The notes under the pieces are model-generated. The model was not told the origin of the DNA, did not search any database, and saw only the letters and a list, made by a program, of their open reading frames with translations. This document shows positions 4,068 to 63,509 of a DNA stretch of 64,000 bases, in pieces (position 1 is the first letter of the stretch; every line of letters starts with the position of its first letter). Source of the stretch: a virus; the IMG/VR virus record IMGVR_UViG_3300045988_081432, positions 1 to 64,000 of that record. One strand, 5' to 3'. A program made the translations under genes and the position numbers.

Positions 4068-4571
4068 TTATTCACAATATAACTTAACTAAACCGTCTCT
4101 TAGTGTCTCTTTTAAATCAATTACTCTTTGATTTCTACTCCCACGCCATTTTAGAGTAATATCATGCTGAGATTTAATATATTCCCCATCTACTAAGACA
4201 TCAATATATTTAACAATCTCTTGAGTATCACTTCTATTCATTACTTCCTCATACTCATATCCAGTCCAACACCAAATATCTTTTTGAGGGAACTTTTCTT
4301 TTACTAATTTAACAAGGCGAGTAAGTTCTGGAATATTCTCTTTCTTTAGTGGGTCTCCACCACTAAGAGTAAGACCAGAAATATAATCGTGGTTTAGATA
4401 ACTGAGAATTTCATTTACTGTGTCGTCAGTAAACTTGCTCCCGTAATTGCTGTCCCAAGTTTCAGGATTTTGACATTCATCACAACAATGGTCACAACCA
4501 CTTACCCAGAGAACAACTCTTACTCCCTCTCCATTTGCAATGTCGTATTTTGTTATCTTAGCATAATTCAT
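4068..4571 (-). CDS. nrdG: anaerobic ribonucleotide reductase activating protein (radical SAM)
   Basis: GCDHCCDECQNPETW Cys cluster near the N-terminus and LSGGDPL motif. TAATG overlap with the nrdD stop; RBS AGGAG. Confidence 0.8.
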   Translation of the reverse strand: MNYAKITKYDIANGEGVRVVLWVSGCDHCCDECQNPETWDSNYGSKFTDDTVNEILSYLNHDYISGLTLSGGDPLKKENIPELTRLVKLVKEKFPQKDIWCWTGYEYEEVMNRSDTQEIVKYIDVLVDGEYIKSQHDITLKWRGSRNQRVIDLKETLRDGLVKLYCE

Positions 4572-7500
4572 TACTGGACTCCTAGATGAACAACTCGCTC
4601 TTTAATCTCTTGTGTGCGACCTTGATTCCAGTCATTAGTACCAAGATAACCACAAGTTCTACGCACGATGTTCATTTTTGATTTATCACGATTTTTACAA
4701 TTTGGACATTCCCAAACTAGCTTACCATCATCATCTTTTACGATTTGGATTTCTCCGTCATAACCACAGACCTGACAGTAATCACATTTGGTATTTAGTT
4801 CTGCATACATAATGTTGTCATAAATAAACTTGATTACAGAGAGAACAGCCTCGACATTATTATTCAAGTTAGGTATTTCTATATAACTTATGGCACCACC
4901 CGGAGATAGTTTCTGAAATTCGCTTTCAAATTTCAATTTTGTAAAGGCATCAATCTTTTCGGTTACAACAACATGATAAGAGTTTGTAATATAATTTCTA
5001 TCTGTAATACCCGGAATAACACCGAAACGCCTCTTTAGGCACTTGGCAAACTTGTATGTAGTGGATTCGATTGGGGAGCCATACAAACTATAATCAATGT
5101 TTTCAGAGGCTTTCCATTCATTACACTTATCATTCATGTATTGCATGATTTCAAGTGCGAACGGTTTTGCTTCATCACTTGTATGACTCTTGCCAGTCAT
5201 AGCAAGAACGCATTCGTAGAGACCAGCATATCCTAGACTAATGGTTGAATAACCGTCATACAGGAGCTTATCAATCTTCTCTCCTTTCTTTAGACGAGCA
5301 AGACCTCCATGTTGCCAATGAATTGGAGATACATCTGATAGAGTACCAAGAAGTCTATTATGGCGAATCTGTAGCGCCCTGTGACACAACTCAAGACGTT
5401 CGTCAAAAATCTTCCAGAACTTATTAAAATCTTTGTTTGCACTTAAACCGACATCTGCAAGATTAATAGTAACAACGCCTTGATTAAAACGTCCGTAATA
5501 CTTCTTTCCCTTAACCCAGTTATTAGCATTCGCTAAATTCTCTGTCGTGCGGTCAGGAGTTAGGAACGAGCGACACCCCATACAGGGGAAGCAATCACCC
5601 TTATATTCCAGCATTTTCTTTTCTGAAATATAATCTGGAACCATACGCTTTGCTGTACATTTAGCGGCAAGCTCTGTTAGATAATAATACTTATCTCCCT
5701 CATGGATATTATCTTCTTCTAGTACATAAAGAATCTTTGGGAATGCAGGAGTAATCCATACCCCCTGTTCATTTTTAGTTCCTTCAATTCTTTGCTTTAG
5801 AACCTCTTCAATGAGCATTGCGAAGTCGTCTTTTTCTCTGCCATCATTTACTTCATTTAGATAAAGGAAAATAGATACAAATGGTGTCTGCCCATTAGTC
5901 GTCATCAAAGTATTAATTTGATACTGAATTGTCTGGACTCCGCGTTTAATTTCTTCTTTTAGACGACCTTCTGTAATCTCATTAATCTGTTCATCCGTAG
6001 CATTTGAATTTAACAGAGCAACTTCTTCCATTACTTGCTTTCTGATTTTCTTTCTGCTAACGTCAATAAACGGAACAAGATGAGCTAATGATTCGCTCTG
6101 GCCTCCATACTGATTGCTCGCAACCTGTGCCATCACCTGAGTCGCAATATTGCAAGCAGTTGCAAAACTATGAGGCTTCTCAATTAGAGTACCGTTAATC
6201 ACAGTACCATTTTGGAGCATATCTTCCAGATTAATTAGGCAACAGTTTCCAGTTATAACGCCGCCGTCAAGAGTAAAGGAATGTGTTTCTGGCTCTTCGA
6301 CGCACCAAGCATCATATTCAATCTCTGGACGATAAGGCGTAATTTTCTTTACGACCCATAAATTGTTTGTATTTTGATATTTTCTGAACCGGAAGTTAAT
6401 TAGTCTAGCGTTTTTCTTAAAGTTTGTGTCATGGACAGTTTCGGATTCGCTTGCAATATAAAATCCCGCGATAGAGGAAATATCACGAATCATTTCTGCA
6501 ACTCGGTCATCAACGGTAGAGACTCTATTGGTATCAACAGCTCCATCTGCCGCATAAAAACCATCAAAAAGAAATTGCTTTCTTTTTCCATTTAGGAAGC
6601 GCCATGCTTTGGCGTTCAAGAAGTCTTGCTTAAAAGCGTTCTTACACAAAGCGTAGGCATCTCCATGATAAGATTCTGGATATGTGACAGTGTAACCAGC
6701 CCTTACAAAGTAATCTACATATACTGATTTTTCTCCACATAAGCGAACTGTTGTATACCCGGATTTCTTATCAACGCCGTCTCCAATCGCAAAACCAATA
6801 GCCCATGCTTGGTAGTCTTCTTTTGACTTCATTTCATATTTAGACAATTCAGGTAGAGACGCGAGAACCATTCCTTCTTTTAAATTCGTCGTTACACTTC
6901 CGTCATTTAATAACCATCTGTGATTGGAGGTACAGAGGACGTGCTTAATTGAACGACCGGACTGAATCATAACATCTTGCATTTTTTGTTTTCCGTACTT
7001 TTTTACGGTAGCAATATGCCATTCGCCATCAGAGCCAATAACCTTAACAGTTTCACCATCATTAAAATCTCTAAATTCTTTTACGCCATCATCCGTTACA
7101 AAACGCGTGTTGCCCTTAAAACAGTTGTGCATCCGTTGAATCGCATAGTCAGAGTCATGAAAATGAATCAAGCCTTGCTCATGTGCTTCACGAATGTCTT
7201 TTGGAAGAATCAGACGATTTACAATATCACGGCTTACTTCACCAGCAATATAATCACGTTGCGTAGCTGCAATTTTAGGATTCTTGTTACTGTTTTCTTG
7301 AATTACATCTTCATTTACGCCATCAACAATAGACAAAATTTTACCATCAGTCGTATTACCGTTTCTAGCAAGCTGGCGCTCATAACGATAACGAATATAC
7401 GTTTTTGCGACATCATAATAACCGCGTTGCATCAGAAGTGATTCAATTGCATCTTGAATATTTTCGACAGATACGGCGCAATCTTGTGCTTTAAAATTAT

Positions 7501-7651
7501 TATATACTTCTGTGGCGATTGTCTGAATTGCAATCTGCGGCATCGCTTCCCCACCGCTTTTTTCTACCTCGTCGCTTGCTTTTTGAATTGCAAGCGTTAT
7601 CTTTCCTTTTTGGAACTTGTCTTCACGACCATCACGCTTAATTACATTCAT
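4571..7651 (-). CDS. nrdD: anaerobic ribonucleoside-triphosphate reductase (class III), intein-containing precursor
   Basis: ATP-cone-like N-terminus (VIKRDGREDKF), C-terminal Zn ribbon CDYCQVCG...CPNC and glycyl-radical motif RRTCGYLG. 1026 aa, of which 293 aa are an insertion. Confidence 0.9.
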   Translation of the reverse strand: MNVIKRDGREDKFQKGKITLAIQKASDEVEKSGGEAMPQIAIQTIATEVYNNFKAQDCAVSVENIQDAIESLLMQRGYYDVAKTYIRYRYERQLARNGNTTDGKILSIVDGVNEDVIQENSNKNPKIAATQRDYIAGEVSRDIVNRLILPKDIREAHEQGLIHFHDSDYAIQRMHNCFKGNTRFVTDDGVKEFRDFNDGETVKVIGSDGEWHIATVKKYGKQKMQDVMIQSGRSIKHVLCTSNHRWLLNDGSVTTNLKEGMVLASLPELSKYEMKSKEDYQAWAIGFAIGDGVDKKSGYTTVRLCGEKSVYVDYFVRAGYTVTYPESYHGDAYALCKNAFKQDFLNAKAWRFLNGKRKQFLFDGFYAADGAVDTNRVSTVDDRVAEMIRDISSIAGFYIASESETVHDTNFKKNARLINFRFRKYQNTNNLWVVKKITPYRPEIEYDAWCVEEPETHSFTLDGGVITGNCCLINLEDMLQNGTVINGTLIEKPHSFATACNIATQVMAQVASNQYGGQSESLAHLVPFIDVSRKKIRKQVMEEVALLNSNATDEQINEITEGRLKEEIKRGVQTIQYQINTLMTTNGQTPFVSIFLYLNEVNDGREKDDFAMLIEEVLKQRIEGTKNEQGVWITPAFPKILYVLEEDNIHEGDKYYYLTELAAKCTAKRMVPDYISEKKMLEYKGDCFPCMGCRSFLTPDRTTENLANANNWVKGKKYYGRFNQGVVTINLADVGLSANKDFNKFWKIFDERLELCHRALQIRHNRLLGTLSDVSPIHWQHGGLARLKKGEKIDKLLYDGYSTISLGYAGLYECVLAMTGKSHTSDEAKPFALEIMQYMNDKCNEWKASENIDYSLYGSPIESTTYKFAKCLKRRFGVIPGITDRNYITNSYHVVVTEKIDAFTKLKFESEFQKLSPGGAISYIEIPNLNNNVEAVLSVIKFIYDNIMYAELNTKCDYCQVCGYDGEIQIVKDDDGKLVWECPNCKNRDKSKMNIVRRTCGYLGTNDWNQGRTQEIKERVVHLGVQ
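6245..7123 (-). mobile_element. intein with LAGLIDADG homing-endonuclease domain inside NrdD (aa 177-469)
   Basis: Host sequence MHN|C...GN|CCLINL. Block A CFKGNTRFVTDDG, block B TSNH, LAGLIDADG motifs AIGFAIGDG and LFDGFYAADG, C-terminal ...HSFTLDGGVITGN followed by Cys+1. Confidence 0.85.
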
Positions 7652-14568: not shown

Positions 14569-14645
14569 CGCAGAATAGCCCAATCAGGTACGGCGCTTGG
14601 CTCATACCCAAGAGATTCTTCGTTCAAATCGAAGTTCTGCACCCA
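14569..14645 (+). tRNA. tRNA-Met (anticodon CAU) with encoded CCA and a C1:A72 mismatch
   Basis: Cloverleaf folded by hand. Acceptor CGCAGAA/TTCTGCA (6 bp plus C:A). D arm GCC/GGC with a GG loop. Anticodon stem CTTGG/CCAAG with loop CTCATAC. 5-nt variable loop. T arm CTTCG-TTCAAAT-CGAAG, then C-CCA. Confidence 0.8.
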
Positions 14646-58154: not shown

Positions 58155-58203
58155 TACGCTTGTTACTATTTCGTTGTTAAATTATTTATAAGGAGTGGAT
58201 TTA

Positions 58204-60369
58204 ATGCCTAAATATTCTGAAAATTTGAATCTAAGACTAGATGACCCTGTTGCCGACGTATCACAGTTGTCAAGAAACTGGTTTGAGGCTAACTTCGGAT
58301 ATACCGATAGTAACATGACCAAAATTGATTCTGCCTATAAAGCAATGAAAGATGATATAGCTGATACTCCAACAAAATCTGGCGTTGGAGCTACTGGTGA
58401 CTGGGATATCAATGTTACTGGCTCTGCCAATAGCGCTGTTCATGATGGAGTAGGAAACGACATCTCTTCTTCTTATATAACTGGTATATCAGTCGGAAAC
58501 ACCTCTATTACTTATACAAAAGGAGACGGAACCGACCAAGAAGAGACTATTAAAACAGATAAAACTTTGAGTATTAAAGGAATGGCTGCGGACGCAAAGG
58601 CAACGGGAGACTTGATTAAGAAATCTATCTATCCTACACTTGTGGTAAGTGTTACTGCTGGTTCATCTGTTACCGTTACGAAGGACTCTTATTCGTTCTC
58701 TGGTACTACTGACGACAAAGGCAAAGTAGAGTTTAACCTCCCCGCATTGGGACGATGGGATATTTCTGCAAGTCATAATGGTAGAACCGTAACCGACTTC
58801 ATTGATATTGATGTTCTTGCTAAAAGGTATACTATCAGTTTGGTATATTTTAACGCAAACTTAGTTGTTAGTGCTCCAACTAATGCCGTTGTGACTGCTA
58901 TTTCTGGACACTATCAGTATACTAAGACCTCTGGTTCTGAAGGAAACGCTACTTTTGACATTAATCACGCTGGCAATTATACTGTTACAGCCACAATGAA
59001 TACCGCCACTTCCAATCCTGTGCCTGTAGATATTACAGAAGATGGTGGCAATTATAGCGCCGAGGCAGTATTCCGCACTATTACAGTAACTTGTAACTCC
59101 GGTAGCTCTATTACAGTCCAAAAAGATGAAGAGGTCTTAACCGGTAATAGTACAGGCGTCCCTGTTAAATTTTATATTCCATCTACCGGCTCTTGGACTG
59201 TAACAGCAACGCTGGGTGAAAATGTCGCCCAAGAAGAAATTAACGTAGTAGACTTTACCGACTATCCTATTACACTAAATTATGCTAGAATTTTTGGTGT
59301 AGTATGGGCTTATTCTAATTCTTCTACCGCGCTTGCTCGTGTTACAAAAGCTAATGACCCGAATAACTATGTAAATACAGATATTACTACCAGTCCCTCT
59401 CCCGCTGTAGGTACTGGTTCTGGTAGTAGTCCATTTGACGATTATATGCCGTGGAAGGGTATGGACGAATATAACATCGTTAACGGTGTTGTTGGGGCAA
59501 AATATGGCGAAGCTGGATTCTCTCGTAGTTCTAACGATGTAATGGTATATATTCCTGAATTTTGGTATAAGGTCGTAGACAATGGTAGCGCAAGCAAGCG
59601 TTACTTTTACATTGCAAATAAGGCAACAGATGGATTCGAGAAACATCCTGGTTCTGGGCGCTATGTAGGTCGTTATAATACGTCTAACAATCGTTCCGTA
59701 TCTCCTTCGACGCCTTACATTAATATGAGTCGTGCATCTGCTCGTAATGGGGCAAGAGGCAAGGGAAACAAGTGGGCGCTATACGATTACGCTTCTTGGT
59801 GTGCTGTATGGTTACTTTATATAATAGAATATGCGGACTGGAACAGCCAGAGCAAAATTGGTAGAGGGTATGTAGATAACAACATCAATCTAATTGCTTC
59901 TGGCTATACTGACAGCATGACTTATCATACTGGACGTGTCTCTGGTTCTGATGGCTCTACCTCAGTGCAATATCGCCATATTGAGAACCCTTGGGGAAAC
60001 GTCTACGAGTGGATTGATGGCATAAACTTTAGTGGTAATGGAGTATATATTTGTACTGATATTTCTAAATACGCCGATGATACCGTCACAAACTATACTT
60101 ATGCCGGCGCTAAAACTCAATCTAGCGGATACATCTCTATGACTGGATATTCTTCCACATATCCATGGAGTTTTTATCCAACTAGTACCAGTGGCAGCGA
60201 AACAACATATATCCCTGACTACTTTTACTCTGGCGGCGGTTGGCGTGTTTTGTGTGTTGGTGGTGATTGGGACGGTGGGTCGAGGGCCGGTCTGTTCTAT
60301 TTCTATGCGGACGTTGGTTCTAGCAGCTCGAGCTCGAGCATCGGGGCGCGGCTCCTTTTCGTCCCCTAA
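58204..60369 (+). CDS. tail fibre / receptor-binding protein, DGR target with C-terminal C-type-lectin/FGE-like fold
   Basis: ATG 58204 lies 9 nt after AGGAG. Three Ig-like repeats (...GKVEFNLPALGRWDISASHNG; ...GNATFDINHAGNYTVTATMN; ...VPVKFYIPSTGSWTVTATLG). C-terminus NPWGNVYEWIDG...GGGWRVLCVGGDWDGG...IGARLLFVP carries the VR. Confidence 0.75.
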   Translation: MPKYSENLNLRLDDPVADVSQLSRNWFEANFGYTDSNMTKIDSAYKAMKDDIADTPTKSGVGATGDWDINVTGSANSAVHDGVGNDISSSYITGISVGNTSITYTKGDGTDQEETIKTDKTLSIKGMAADAKATGDLIKKSIYPTLVVSVTAGSSVTVTKDSYSFSGTTDDKGKVEFNLPALGRWDISASHNGRTVTDFIDIDVLAKRYTISLVYFNANLVVSAPTNAVVTAISGHYQYTKTSGSEGNATFDINHAGNYTVTATMNTATSNPVPVDITEDGGNYSAEAVFRTITVTCNSGSSITVQKDEEVLTGNSTGVPVKFYIPSTGSWTVTATLGENVAQEEINVVDFTDYPITLNYARIFGVVWAYSNSSTALARVTKANDPNNYVNTDITTSPSPAVGTGSGSSPFDDYMPWKGMDEYNIVNGVVGAKYGEAGFSRSSNDVMVYIPEFWYKVVDNGSASKRYFYIANKATDGFEKHPGSGRYVGRYNTSNNRSVSPSTPYINMSRASARNGARGKGNKWALYDYASWCAVWLLYIIEYADWNSQSKIGRGYVDNNINLIASGYTDSMTYHTGRVSGSDGSTSVQYRHIENPWGNVYEWIDGINFSGNGVYICTDISKYADDTVTNYTYAGAKTQSSGYISMTGYSSTYPWSFYPTSTSGSETTYIPDYFYSGGGWRVLCVGGDWDGGSRAGLFYFYADVGSSSSSSSIGARLLFVP
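60227..60357 (+). repeat. DGR variable region (VR)
   Basis: 131-bp copy of TR. 13 of the 14 mismatches are at TR adenines. Confidence 0.85.
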
Positions 60370-60394
60370 TGGGGGACTGGGGGTCGCAACCCCC
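60361..60394 (+). promoter_or_regulatory. two GC-rich hairpins immediately 3' of VR (candidate DGR target-recognition element and terminator)
   Basis: GTCCCC-TAATG-GGGGAC (60361-60377, spans the stop codon) and GGGGG-TCGCAA-CCCCC (60379-60394) followed by ATTTTT. No equivalent follows TR. Confidence 0.55.
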
Positions 60395-60530
60395 ATTTTT
60401 AATGATTATTTAGACGCTTTCGCTTGTTTTATCTAAATGGCTCCAAGATAAAACAGACTTTTTATATTTTGGGATTGTTTGTGCTGCGCCCGATGTTCTA
60501 CTAGGCATTCGACGCTAGTGGAAAACGCTG

Positions 60531-60661
60531 ACTCTGGCAGCGGTTGGCGTGTTTTGTATGTTGGTGGTGATTGGAACGGTGGGTCGAATGCCGGTCTGTT
60601 CTATTTCAATGCGAACAATGATTCTAGCAACTCGAACTCGAACATCGGGGCGCGGCTACTT
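60531..60661 (+). repeat. DGR template region (TR)
   Basis: Invariant, adenine-bearing copy with AAC/AAT codons in the VR frame. Lies directly upstream of the RT. Confidence 0.85.
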
Positions 60662-60784
60662 GTTTATTCTCCGTTTATTATCGCACAAACTCTCCCGCAC
60701 CACTTGGTGAAAATATTGCCAATTAGGAAGCGAATTAGTAGGTTTATTCTCGAAAATTTGCGCGGCAAACAAGGAGATGTTTTT

Positions 60785-61945
60785 ATTCCTAAAAGAAAAG
60801 GTTATTTATATGAAAAAATGCTAAATAAAGAGCAAATTCGCTTTATCATTCAAGAAGCGGCAAGAGGGAAAACAAATAGAAGAGAAGTTCGCCGTGTATT
60901 GAAAAATTTAGATTTATATGTAGACAAAACATACGAGATGCTGGTTACGGAGTCGTTTAAGCCATCTGTCCCGCATGAAAAAGAAATCTATGACGTAAGC
61001 AGTCAAAAGGTCAGAATTATCAAAACAGTACCATTTTGGCCTGATGGAATTATGCATTGGCTTATTGTTGATGCTCTAAAACCTATCTTTATGAAAGGTA
61101 TGTATGATTGGTCTTGTGCTTCTATTCCCGGAAGAGGCGGGGTAAAAGTCCAAAAGAAACTGCAAAAATTTATTAGAACAAGCAAAAAGGCTAAATATGC
61201 CGCCGAATTAGATGTCTCGAAATACTATCCGTCAATATCTACTGATACCCTAATAGAATTATTAAGAAGAAAAGTAAAAGATAAGAAAATGATTAAAATA
61301 GTTCAGGATATAGCGGAATCTTGCGGTGGAGGTCTAGCGATAGGATACTATATTTGTCAATGGCTGGCGAACTTTTATCTGGAATCACTAGACCATTATA
61401 TTGCATCTCTGCCCGGTGTAGATTGTTACACCAGATATATGGATAATATAACATTGATAGGGGCAAACAAAAAACTGTTACATGAAGCAAGAAGAAAAAT
61501 AGAAATGTTTTTAAAAGATAAATTGTCATTAAAACTAAAGGGAAATTGGCAAGTATATAGATTATCTTTTACAAGAAAAGTTTCCCAAAAACACCTTCTT
61601 CTAGACAAAAAACAACAAAGACTAAGAAAACCTAGGTTAGTATCTGCTGTTGGATGTAGATTCGCTAAGACATATACTATTGTAAGAAAGAGAAATTTTC
61701 TACGTTTAACCAGACAAAGCAGAAAAATTCAAAAGAAGCAAAACAAACATTTAAAAATATCTTTTAACATGGCGACGGGTTTTATAAGCAGAATCGCACA
61801 ATTAACAAGGTGCGACAGTCAATATGCCAAAGAAAAATACGTTTATTCAATAAACATGAAGCAATTAAAGGAGGTTATCAGAAATGAAAGTAAACGCAAG
61901 CTGTGCTCCAAACAAAAGCTTTCGTGTAGAGGAAATCCCGAATAA
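60785..61945 (+). CDS. DGR-type reverse transcriptase; start uncertain (ATT 60785 after AGGAG, or ATG 60818)
   Basis: RT motifs in order: AARGKTNRREV, IPGRGG, ELDVSKYYPSI, GLAIGYYICQWLANFYL (DGR-like IGxxx[S/C]Q), YTRYMDNITLIG (YxDD position). The track ORF from 60479 simply reads through TR. Confidence 0.8.
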   Translation: MPKRKGYLYEKMLNKEQIRFIIQEAARGKTNRREVRRVLKNLDLYVDKTYEMLVTESFKPSVPHEKEIYDVSSQKVRIIKTVPFWPDGIMHWLIVDALKPIFMKGMYDWSCASIPGRGGVKVQKKLQKFIRTSKKAKYAAELDVSKYYPSISTDTLIELLRRKVKDKKMIKIVQDIAESCGGGLAIGYYICQWLANFYLESLDHYIASLPGVDCYTRYMDNITLIGANKKLLHEARRKIEMFLKDKLSLKLKGNWQVYRLSFTRKVSQKHLLLDKKQQRLRKPRLVSAVGCRFAKTYTIVRKRNFLRLTRQSRKIQKKQNKHLKISFNMATGFISRIAQLTRCDSQYAKEKYVYSINMKQLKEVIRNESKRKLCSKQKLSCRGNPE

Positions 61946-62282
61946 GCCCGGGTTTGCTCTTGCGCGGTTTTTTGAAAATGTAGTGGAAAATGAAAAAAAG
62001 ATTGATGACAAAACTATTAAGGAATATAACTATGATGAATATCATTTAATTATGCCTTATTATGACAATATAGAAAAAGATGTTTCTGCAAACATTGAGA
62101 ATTTAATGACTCAAGCAAAATACGAAGAGGAAGAGAAAAATACAATTCCTAATCTCAAAGGCCAAATTAGTGAGCTAGAAAAACAAAAATCTAAACTTGA
62201 AGAGCAGACAACGGATATGCAACTTGCTCTATGTGATGTATATGAGCAAATGTTATCTGTTACTTCTACCACAAAGGAGTGA
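61884..62282 (+). CDS. hypothetical acidic coiled-coil protein overlapping the RT 3' end
   Basis: Strong RBS AAAGGAGG 9 nt upstream of ATG 61884. 62-nt overlap with the RT ORF. Confidence 0.55.
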   Translation: MKVNASCAPNKSFRVEEIPNKPGFALARFFENVVENEKKIDDKTIKEYNYDEYHLIMPYYDNIEKDVSANIENLMTQAKYEEEEKNTIPNLKGQISELEKQKSKLEEQTTDMQLALCDVYEQMLSVTSTTKE

Positions 62283-62288
62283 TTTGTA

Positions 62289-62411
62289 ATGCCTAAAATT
62301 TATGCAGAACTCATTCGTAAAGGATTCAAAACTATTGACGATGTTCCTGTTTCTATCAGGGAAGAAGTAGAAAAGATTCTCGCAGAGAGCACTCATTGTG
62401 CGCTCTCTTGA
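62289..62411 (+). CDS. small conserved phage protein, paralog 1 (40 aa)
   Basis: MPKIYAELIRKGFKTIDDVPVSIREEVEKILAESTHCALS. RBS AGGAG. Paralogous to 62453-62545. Confidence 0.5.
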   Translation: MPKIYAELIRKGFKTIDDVPVSIREEVEKILAESTHCALS

Positions 62412-62452
62412 ATTTATTTGTTAAATTATTTATAAGAAAAGGAGATAATATT

Positions 62453-62545
62453 ATGGCTATTATTTATGCTACTCTAATTGTTAAAGGTAAAAAGACTATT
62501 AACCAAGTCCCCGCAATCATTCGTGAACAGGTAAAGAAATCCTAA
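62453..62545 (+). pseudogene. small conserved phage protein, paralog 2, apparently frameshifted at an A-run
   Basis: MAIIYATLIVKGKKTINQVPAIIREQVKKS* as written. The -1 frame from 62539 continues ILKDLEVEI and stops at TGA 62566-62568, overlapping the lysin ATG. Confidence 0.4.
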
Positions 62546-62567
62546 AGGACTTGGAAGTTGAGATTTG

Positions 62568-63509
62568 ATGAAAAATATTATAGATATTTCTTATGCTCAA
62601 GGTAAAATTTCTGATGCGCAATGGAAATATTTCAAAGAGAATCTAACTGGAATTATTATTCGCTTTGGTTATCGCGGGTATTCTAATGGGAATATAAAAC
62701 TTGATAAATGCTTAGATTATAACGTATTTAAGTGCCAAGAATATAATATCCCGTATGGGTTATATATATTTTCTCAAGCCATGGACAAGCAAGAAGGTAT
62801 TGAAGAGGCCAACGCAATAATCTCATCTGAATACTTCAATAATGCAACTCTCGGTATTTGGTTTGATTCAGAATTAGCCGATGATGGGAATGGTAGAGCA
62901 GATAACATTTCCGTTGAATCTCGCACAGAGGCAACAAAAGGATTCTGTGATACTATTATTCTTGCAAACAAGAAAACCGGAATTTATGCTTCTTCCAGTT
63001 GGTTCATTTCCAGACTAGATATGAGTAAACTGCAATACCCAATTTGGGTGGCACACTACGGGAATGATTATTCTTATAAAAAAAATGTTGTATTGTGGCA
63101 ATACTCTAGCTCTAACCCTATGCTTATTCCGGGGTTTGCAAAACTTGACTGTAATAAGATTGTTGATGAATCTTTCTTTAATAATTCGAGTCCCGTTCTT
63201 GCTAAATCAAAGAAATATTTTATCCAACAAATTCAAAAAGCTCTCGGTGTTAAAGCGGACGGTATTTTCGGCCCAAAAACATTAGCAGCTACAATTACAG
63301 TCAGCAAAACTAAGAATAGAAAGCATCCTGTTGTAAAAACATTGCAGGAATACTTGAATTATTTAGGGTATAACTGCGGTGCGGCAGACGGGATTGCTGG
63401 TGTTAAATTTGATAACGCCGTGAAACAATTTCAGAAAGAGCATGGATGTATTGTCGATGGAGAGCTAACAGCACAAAAAACTACTTGGAAAAGAATTTTA
63501 ACAATTTAA
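62568..63509 (+). CDS. endolysin: GH25 muramidase plus two PG_binding_1-like repeats
   Basis: N-terminus IIDISYAQGKI...GIIIRFGYRG...YGLYIFS (GH25 pattern). C-terminus KALGVKADGIFGPKT and LGYNCGAADGIAGVKFDNAVKQFQ. Confidence 0.8.
   Translation: MKNIIDISYAQGKISDAQWKYFKENLTGIIIRFGYRGYSNGNIKLDKCLDYNVFKCQEYNIPYGLYIFSQAMDKQEGIEEANAIISSEYFNNATLGIWFDSELADDGNGRADNISVESRTEATKGFCDTIILANKKTGIYASSSWFISRLDMSKLQYPIWVAHYGNDYSYKKNVVLWQYSSSNPMLIPGFAKLDCNKIVDESFFNNSSPVLAKSKKYFIQQIQKALGVKADGIFGPKTLAATITVSKTKNRKHPVVKTLQEYLNYLGYNCGAADGIAGVKFDNAVKQFQKEHGCIVDGELTAQKTTWKRILTI

Follow-up and report, generated by a model that had tools for sequence, protein, structure and literature searches.

The 64,000-nucleotide stretch analyzed here, positions 1 to 64,000 of the IMG/VR virus record IMGVR_UViG_3300045988_081432 and referred to below as the window, carries a diversity-generating retroelement (DGR) between positions 58204 and 62282. 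The locus is identified as a DGR by an adenine-biased pair of a variable repeat (VR) and a template repeat (TR) beside a reverse transcriptase (RT) of the DGR clade. It is probably a phage DGR of a simple type, in which the target gene is followed by the TR, a structured RNA, and the RT gene, and in which there is no gene for the accessory protein Avd.

Anatomy of the DGR Locus

The target gene (58204–60369) encodes a tail fiber or tail protein of ~721 residues and, like all features of the locus, lies on the plus strand. When GTG 58195 is taken as the start, as in the list of open reading frames (ORFs), the frame has 724 codons (58195–60369). ATG 58204 is likely to be the true start, because AAGGAG is situated 8 nt before it. 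Homologues of the target in cluster members begin with MPKYSEN. The protein matches phrog_5302, annotated as "tail protein" (1.5e-78), and no match to its C-terminal 379 residues, where a C-type lectin or Ig fold would be expected in a DGR target, was found in Pfam or PDB sequence searches.

The VR (60227–60357) is located at the 3' end of the target gene, with 12 nt from its end to the stop codon, and forms a 131-nt repeat with the TR (60531–60661). The two copies show 14 mismatches over 131 nt, 13 of them at TR adenines, so that 13 of the 25 adenines in the TR are altered in the VR. The last ~15 nt of the VR (60339–60353, CATCGGGGCGCGGCT) are IMH-like (IMH, initiation of mutagenic homing), since they are GC-rich and identical to the TR end. 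Just 3' of the target stop, a GC-rich hairpin followed by a T-run (TGGGGGTCGCAACCCCCA TTTTT, 60378–60400) resembles an intrinsic terminator and, judged by its position, could be equivalent to the hairpin that follows the IMH in BPP-1. The gap between VR and TR is 173 nt long (60358–60530). A first reading of the locus, made from the letters and their ORFs and called the sequence-only reading here, had described this gap as holding no ORF, and indeed none lies inside it; it is entered by only two spurious ORFs that overlap the target gene in other frames.

The RT gene (60785–61945, stop codon 61943–61945) encodes 386 residues when read from an ATT codon. The protein matches RVT_1 of Pfam and phrog_1423 (1.5e-82). 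It is a genuine DGR RT, because it shares 26% identity with the BPP-1 enzyme bRT (E 7e-17), and the top Foldseek match of its AlphaFold2 (AF2) model (pLDDT 84) is the BPP-1 DGR RT 8UB7_A (E 1.9e-17, TM 0.86). A search of genome contigs in which the query was one RT sequence and not a profile gave two distant matches and no others, at 25–31% identity.

The protein is 58 residues longer than bRT, with an extended C-terminal region, and it is far more basic, with a net charge of +50 (pI 10.1) versus +13. Its C-terminal 125 residues (262–386, window 61568–61945) carry +29, compared with +6 in the matching region of bRT. In the catalytic box, YMDN (residues 218–221, window 61436–61447) takes the place of the usual YMDD. 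Asn-221 is a trait of the clade and not a lesion, because it is invariant in 33 of 33 homologues at 52% identity or above. Relatives further out in the clade retain the second aspartate (L029, L037, L070, L076, and L148–L150; related loci are given by such numbers throughout).

Search for an Avd Gene

The sequence-only reading had suggested that small ORFs be compared with Avd models. When the 80 window ORFs of 75–220 residues on both strands were searched against Pfam, none matched PF05635, the Avd family, at E<0.006. A scan of all small ORFs with NCBIfam, for which the top 25 families were listed, adds little to this negative result. No Avd family member was found among the called genes in the 10 kb beyond the right end of the window, a region of small early genes, dUTPase, RtcB, and the alpha subunit of DNA polymerase III, nor among the called genes of the relatives L002 and L003; beyond the window, 8–10 kb were covered in this way. 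Across ~60 related loci, the distance from the target stop to the TR is only ~160–230 nt. Because gaps of this size are too short for it, an Avd gene in the BPP-1 position is absent from all of these loci. The cassette is therefore not of the BPP-1 type (Architecture B, avd-TR-RT), as there is no avd gene in it.

One explanation for these observations would be that an Avd homologue encoded elsewhere in the phage or in the host genome acts in trans. According to earlier studies cited by Wu et al. (2018), the avd-TR-brt components of BPP-1 function in trans, and since related contigs measure 79–86 kb, ~5–10 kb of the genome falls outside the part scanned. Against this stand the negative searches of the window and of the flanking regions. 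Furthermore, the left end of the window lies only 0.3–0.7 kb from the end of 79–84-kb contigs, and a profile search of avd-less-DGR genomes by Wu et al. found no distant avd. The same Avd-less cassette also moves between siphovirus-like and P2-like myovirus backbones, and a distant partner gene would hinder such transfer. Taken together, we consider an Avd acting from elsewhere highly improbable. Of the options put forward by the sequence-only reading, an Avd encoded elsewhere thus finds no support, whereas an RT that works without Avd is supported by the searches, by the lack of room in the ~60 loci, and by the agreement of VR with TR described next.

Transfer from TR to VR

The relative L002 allows a comparison of two closely related copies of the element. 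Its TR is identical to that of the window across the 3' 100 nt, except for three G/A sites, which the VRs follow, and the 5' edge differs as well. The two VRs differ at 17 sites, and at 11 of these both TRs have an adenine. At four sites where the TRs differ, each VR follows its own TR. Because the differences between the VRs fall mainly on TR adenines and the VRs follow their own TRs, transfer from TR to VR took place after the window and L002 diverged. Another relative, L160, is identical to the window over both VR and TR.

The window and L002 both carry an ATT start, a YMDN box, and no Avd, and the DGR thus appears to have been active without Avd. The same features could be taken to mean that the element is a decaying relic with a non-functional RT: the conserved RT start lacks its ATG and reads ATT, the YMDD box is altered, and TR and RT have been deleted outright in close relatives. 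However, the transfer occurred after the split of two genomes that already had ATT and YMDN, and this weakens such a reading. In addition, the reading frame of the RT is undisrupted, with 97% conservation among the 156 members of its cluster, and Asn-221 shows the invariance noted above. We regard a relic as highly improbable.

RT-18 RNA and the Start of the RT

The spacer between TR and RT contains an RT-18 structured RNA (Rfam RF03021) at 60698–60776. The match is full-length (model positions 1–84) and scores 68.7 bits versus a gathering score of 41.3. It ends 8 nt before the RT start, and its 3' end, for which the conserved sequence reads GCAAACAAGGAG, carries the Shine-Dalgarno sequence of the RT, AAGGAG (60771–60776). 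RT-18 occurs in all of the 16 related loci that were scanned, and at 59–75 bits it was found just upstream of the RT in every one of 13 representative loci as well as in L149 and the Lactobacillus phage LBR48. An RNAalifold analysis of a 16-sequence alignment gave 18 consensus pairs, 10 of which show compensatory double changes. The spacer is a structured RNA supported by covariation.

RT-18 is one of the motifs RT-1 to RT-19 described by Weinberg et al. 2017 (PMC5737381). In BPP-1, the same authors found RT-10 to separate TR from brt, and they speculated that the other RT motifs serve other DGRs. The position of RT-18 in the present locus is that of RT-10 in BPP-1.

As the sequence-only reading had pointed out, the TR lies in one uninterrupted frame of 488 codons with the RT, from TTG 60479 to 61945. 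Within it, the TR is in the same frame as in the translation of the VR. The part upstream of the RT (60479–60784) covers the TR and RT-18 and offers three starts, all of which are used by gene callers in this lineage: TTG 60479 (488 residues), GTG 60518 (475 residues), and TTG 60758 (395 residues). The fusion of a TR-encoded peptide to the RT that this frame implies finds no support, since the frame runs through the RT-18 RNA of the spacer before it reaches the conserved start of the RT.

To define that start, RT sequences were grouped into 16 clusters at 90% nucleotide identity. In 14 of the 16 clusters, ATG-CCN-AAR is found 8 nt after AAGGAG, and the conserved N terminus MPK[RK]xG[FY]LY[ED]KM opens at this ATG. 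One further cluster starts 10 codons upstream. In the window, the corresponding codon (60785–60787) is ATT, which is otherwise found only in L002, where the RT is 97% identical. The members read from the 156-member cluster, formed at 90% on the protein level, all show ATT at this point (...GDVFIPKRKGYLYEKM). Most of the 438 RT homologues in the databases are called at 365 or 386 residues, and a start at ATG 60818 would remove 11 conserved residues of the RT. Because of its positional homology and ideal Shine-Dalgarno spacing, ATT 60785 is most likely the start of the RT. Synthesis of the RT in this lineage is probably weak, because the start codon is ATT where relatives have ATG, and the ATT may act as a built-in attenuator of the RT level. 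We also considered a programmed frameshift that would begin at the out-of-frame ATG 60777 and rejected it, because this ATG abuts the Shine-Dalgarno sequence without spacing and because the homologues simply have an ATG where the window has codon 60785.

Alternatively, the RT could be truly extended at its N terminus by a TR-encoded peptide, initiated at TTG 60479 or GTG 60518 after loss of the canonical ATG. The ATT in the window, in L002, and in every cluster member read would fit this proposal, the frame is open from 60479, and products of 488 and 475 residues are annotated by gene callers. Nevertheless, neither 60479 nor 60518 is preceded by a Shine-Dalgarno sequence, in contrast to the perfect AAGGAG 8 nt before ATT 60785, and the conserved N-terminal sequence MPKRxG[FY]LY begins exactly at codon 60785. 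Translation would also have to cross RT-18, which is conserved as an RNA with compensatory pairs. Among 14 lineages with a mapped TR, the TR is in the RT frame in five, and the ORF is open across the TR in four. Because five of 14 is close to the ~1/3 expected by chance, nothing points to selection for a fusion or for coding in this region. An extended RT is accordingly very unlikely, and the region 60479–60784 is most likely not translated. The 488-codon ORF is a product of ORF calling and exists because the TR inherits the open frame of the VR, the spacer has no stop in this frame, and the ATG is missing.

In a protein clustering at 90%, tail fiber (target) proteins of 725 residues share a cluster with the 488-residue read-through "RT" ORF. 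This mixed cluster is presumably due to the peptide encoded by both TR and VR, and thus a database artifact of the mis-called start.

The 132-Residue Acidic Protein

Directly downstream, a gene for a 132-residue acidic protein (61884–62282) overlaps the 3' end of the RT gene by 62 nt and is preceded by AAGGAGG (61868–61874) at 9 nt. The protein has a pI of 4.75 and a net charge of −9, and its AF2 model (pLDDT 88.8) consists of four β strands followed by one long helix (residues 63–130). A protein search gave 40 homologues, and 218 stretches of IMG/VR were confirmed to carry the family, in which the motifs YDEYHL, AKxxE, and ALCDVYE are invariant. On these grounds the ORF can be regarded as a real conserved gene. 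In a phage collection searched by tblastn, the only homologue found was in MT835573.

The sequence-only reading had described this neighbor as an acidic, coiled-coil protein unlike Avd, with a strong ribosome-binding site (RBS) and a 62-nt overlap with the RT, a description that we can confirm. The structure prediction and profile comparison that it had proposed gave no sign of an Avd: besides the fold just described, alignment of the family profile with BPP-1 Avd by hhalign yielded a probability of 0.9%. No PDB fold match was found at E<0.3, no Avd match was found in Pfam, NCBIfam, or PHROG, and no Pfam family was assigned. Searches by fold and against PDB sequences, Pfam, and NCBIfam returned coiled-coil noise only, and the only real matches are uncharacterized phage proteins in BFVD and a weak one to phrog_18126. 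The protein is not Avd, as it is not a four-helix bundle, is not basic (the pI of Avd is about 9.5), and lacks similarity to the Avd family.

The protein could still be the unrelated accessory factor that the sequence-only reading had offered as an option. It would then replace Avd in this clade, for example in concert with the RT or with the cDNA at the target, and would be coexpressed with the RT through the overlap. The survey of RT loci that the sequence-only reading called for shows that the ORF follows and overlaps the RT end in 15 of the 16 RT clusters, whether the ORF or the RT was used as the query. The overlap is kept at 59–62 nt across different phage backbones, and the divergence of the ORF correlates with that of the RT (Spearman 0.57). 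The protein is also acidic, like the CH1 proteins that Wu et al. reported from avd-less DGRs.

However, the occurrence of the ORF does not follow that of the RT. The relatives L005 and L006 match the window collinearly, with 91–96% identity in the flanks, but window positions 60470–61816 are missing from them. This clean 1.35-kb deletion (L005:6925–6934) has removed the TR, RT-18, and RT residues 1–344. What remains is a frozen VR, ~42 codons from the end of the RT, the RBS, and the 132-residue ORF. Because an RT remnant remains, these loci are deletion derivatives and not loci that never had a DGR. The ORF is intact in them, with 94% identity and a dN/dS of 0.17–0.19 relative to the window.

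In MT835573 (L001 and L004) and in L080–L084, a homologue of the ORF lies 0–14 nt behind a homologous fiber gene. Nothing in these loci matched an RT hidden Markov model (HMM) at E≤10, and no second TR-like copy is present. In L001, the ORF is located among several fiber-like genes and not beside lysis genes, and the C-terminal coiled-coil module of the ORF is encoded there once more, by a small ORF of its own behind a different fiber-like gene. The ORF is thus part of a tail fiber gene cluster in phages that have no DGR, which is evidence of the kind that the sequence-only reading had named as refuting its proposal.

Conversely, the RT occurs without the ORF. The lineage L148–L150 has RT-18, a TR, and the conserved MPKK start together with a different target protein, and its RT is followed not by the 132-residue ORF but by a 63-residue ORF, a holin-like gene, and an endolysin. 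In LBR48, an unrelated ORF occupies the same position. Even between the window and L002, the identity drops from 97% for the RT and 93% for the target to 55% for the ORF, which places a recombination junction between RT and ORF in L002. The protein has no nucleic acid-binding character, and its predicted fold is unlike that of Avd.

Since the ORF is kept in relatives without TR and RT and is absent from L148–L150, a role as accessory factor in place of Avd is unlikely. The 132-residue ORF goes with the tail fiber family and not with the RT. Its position next to fiber genes suggests that the product is most likely a fiber assembly or fiber-associated coiled-coil protein. The tail fiber chaperones of the T4 gp57A kind, which are small, acidic, largely coiled-coil, and functionally tied to tail fiber genes, offer a lead in this direction, although the 132-residue protein differs from them in its additional N-terminal β domain and has no fold match to solved structures.

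Comparison with Known DGRs

The locus shares many features with the BPP-1 DGR (mtd-avd-TR-brt). In both, the VR lies at the 3' end of a tail fiber gene with the TR downstream, VR and TR differ specifically at adenines, and a GC-rich identical 3' end is followed by a hairpin. A structured RNA separates TR and RT in both, and the RTs have the same fold. The differences are the lack of avd between VR and TR, a spacer RNA of another Rfam family, and an RT that begins with ATT, is longer and more basic, and has YMDN instead of YMDD.

The sequence-only reading had treated the lack of Avd as unusual, a premise that is out of date. In the catalogue of Wu et al. 2018 (PMC5758913), avd accompanies 74% of 372 DGRs, which leaves 26% of the elements without it. 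The authors described an accessory-free TR-RT "Architecture A1" and an avd-less Lineage 3, and they proposed Avd-independent retrohoming. The present locus resembles Architecture A1 and Lineage 3 in its TR-RT core, its adjacent upstream target, and the lack of an avd, HRDC, or MSL gene. Compared by description, it differs from sub-lineage 3a, which is known from Bacteroides only, in that its clade occurs in Firmicutes-type phages of both low and high GC content. One of the RT homologues is named as from Anaerotruncus.

The CH1 proteins of the same study have 160–169 residues, are acidic (pI 4.7), and lack recognizable motifs. They accompany avd-less DGRs only and are confined to the Bacteroides Lineage 3a. 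Compared by description only, the 132-residue protein is similarly small and acidic (pI 4.75), but it is shorter, belongs to phages of another host group, and is also found without any DGR.

The closest isolated phage is the Lactobacillus phage LBR48 (GU967410, L155). Here RT-18 (702–777) lies immediately upstream of an RT (822–1886) with 34% identity to that of the window, an acidic ORF of ~136 residues overlaps the RT end, and small ORFs, a holin, and a lysozyme follow. As in the window, no avd is annotated. LBR48 differs in that its 136-residue ORF is not detectably homologous to the 132-residue family (hhalign probability 0.3%) and in that the target would be situated far from the RT in the linear record, within the last 2.3 kb, which are unannotated.

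Among phages of Faecalibacterium prausnitzii, Cornuault et al. 2018 (PMC5883640) found Avd homologues in only two of the DGR-bearing types and suggested that another small protein may act in place of Avd. These are likewise gut Firmicutes phages with Avd-less DGRs, and the RT of FP_Epona is 30% identical to that of the window. They differ in that tblastn found no homologue of the 132-residue ORF in their records. Avd is not mentioned in Roux et al. 2021 or in a 2024 survey, and current engineered DGR systems rely on bRT together with Avd.

Neighboring Genes and Other Observations

Between the 132-residue ORF and the endolysin gene are two small CD1375-like genes in tandem on the plus strand (62289–62411 and 62453–62545), which match phrog_1382 at 1.2e-12 and 7.5e-15 and PF23792 weakly. 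The two genes are paralogous, and no holin-like gene was noticed within 62282–62565. A 38-nt direct repeat, 82% identical between its copies (ATTT..TTGTTAAATTATTTATAAG..GGAG), is present at 58168–58205, in front of the target gene of the DGR, and at 62412–62449, in front of the second CD1375-like gene. The repeat could be a late promoter/RBS module common to both genes. The endolysin gene (62565–63509, plus strand) encodes a GH25 muramidase domain (PF01183, 4.4e-17) and PG_binding_1 repeats (PF01471, 3e-18) and marks the start of the lysis module.

Elsewhere, the region 1–27000 of the window encodes the anaerobic ribonucleotide reductase NrdD and its activase NrdG on the minus strand (for example, 4571–7651 and 4068–4571). 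Other ORFs of the phage match AgrB, a SocA/Panacea antitoxin, HU, RecU, and a ClpP-type prohead protease, and there is one tRNA-Met, with a tRNA at 14569–14645. The relative L159 shows a weak Acb2/Tad1-hairpin match. A few kilobases from the DGR, other relatives carry a twister-sister ribozyme (80 bits, L073:6678–6760, minus strand), a type-P5 twister ribozyme (54 bits, L070:10891–10948, minus strand), and a cluster of five tRNA genes (L029:13418–13873, minus strand).

Discussion

By analogy with BPP-1, a transcript that spans the TR and RT-18 (60531–60776) would serve as both template and scaffold RNA. The RT would be translated from ATT 60785 behind the Shine-Dalgarno sequence at the end of RT-18 and would copy the TR into a cDNA mutagenized at adenines, which would then replace the VR at the 3' end of the fiber gene. 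The unusually basic RT and the RT-18 RNA would stand in for what bRT obtains from the basic Avd pentamer; presumably it is the basic C-terminal extension that, together with RT-18, supplies the nucleic acid-binding surface. The TR-RT cassette lies between the fiber gene and the gene of its proposed 132-residue partner.

Several points weigh against this account of the locus. In the literature searched, we found no experiment in which an Avd-less DGR works with RT and RNA alone. An asparagine in place of the last aspartate of YMDD lowers activity in some polymerases, and ATT is a weak initiator, so that the in-frame codons TTG 60758 or GTG 60518 could be the real starts. The Avd scans took in the window and the fetched flanks, with ~5–10 kb of the phage genome beyond them, and Avd is poorly conserved, so that a divergent member could escape a Pfam search. 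The fiber assembly role of the 132-residue protein is drawn from gene position, and the protein has no fold or family match. Moreover, the divergence of its gene correlates no less with that of the RT than with that of the target (Spearman 0.57 versus 0.54, partial 0.34 versus 0.27). This codivergence and the way in which the gene overlaps the RT end in 15 of 16 clusters leave a small chance of a second, DGR-related role.

In such a dual role, the 132-residue protein would serve the fiber and in addition contribute to retrohoming, where it might connect the RT/cDNA complex or the newly diversified fiber with assembly. We regard this as quite unlikely. If true, the protein would represent a new kind of DGR accessory protein that is unrelated to Avd, HRDC, MSL, and CH1. 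The distribution of its gene shows that it is not obligatorily tied to the RT.

That DGRs can lack Avd is already known and common. The present locus places RT-18 in the TR-RT spacer of an Avd-less clade, which gives this orphan Rfam motif a location, and it shows an ATT fixed at the RT start. It also takes the 132-residue ORF, which looked attractive as a substitute for Avd but is the wrong candidate, out of consideration as the missing factor. For annotation, the RT of this widespread gut-phage DGR clade should start at the conserved MPKR codon that follows RT-18. Where ATT has replaced ATG, automatic callers yield "RT" proteins of 395–488 residues, and these mis-called proteins, which bear a TR-encoded N terminus, cluster spuriously with fiber proteins of 725 residues. 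If RT and RNA do suffice, the clade would represent a compact two-part DGR.

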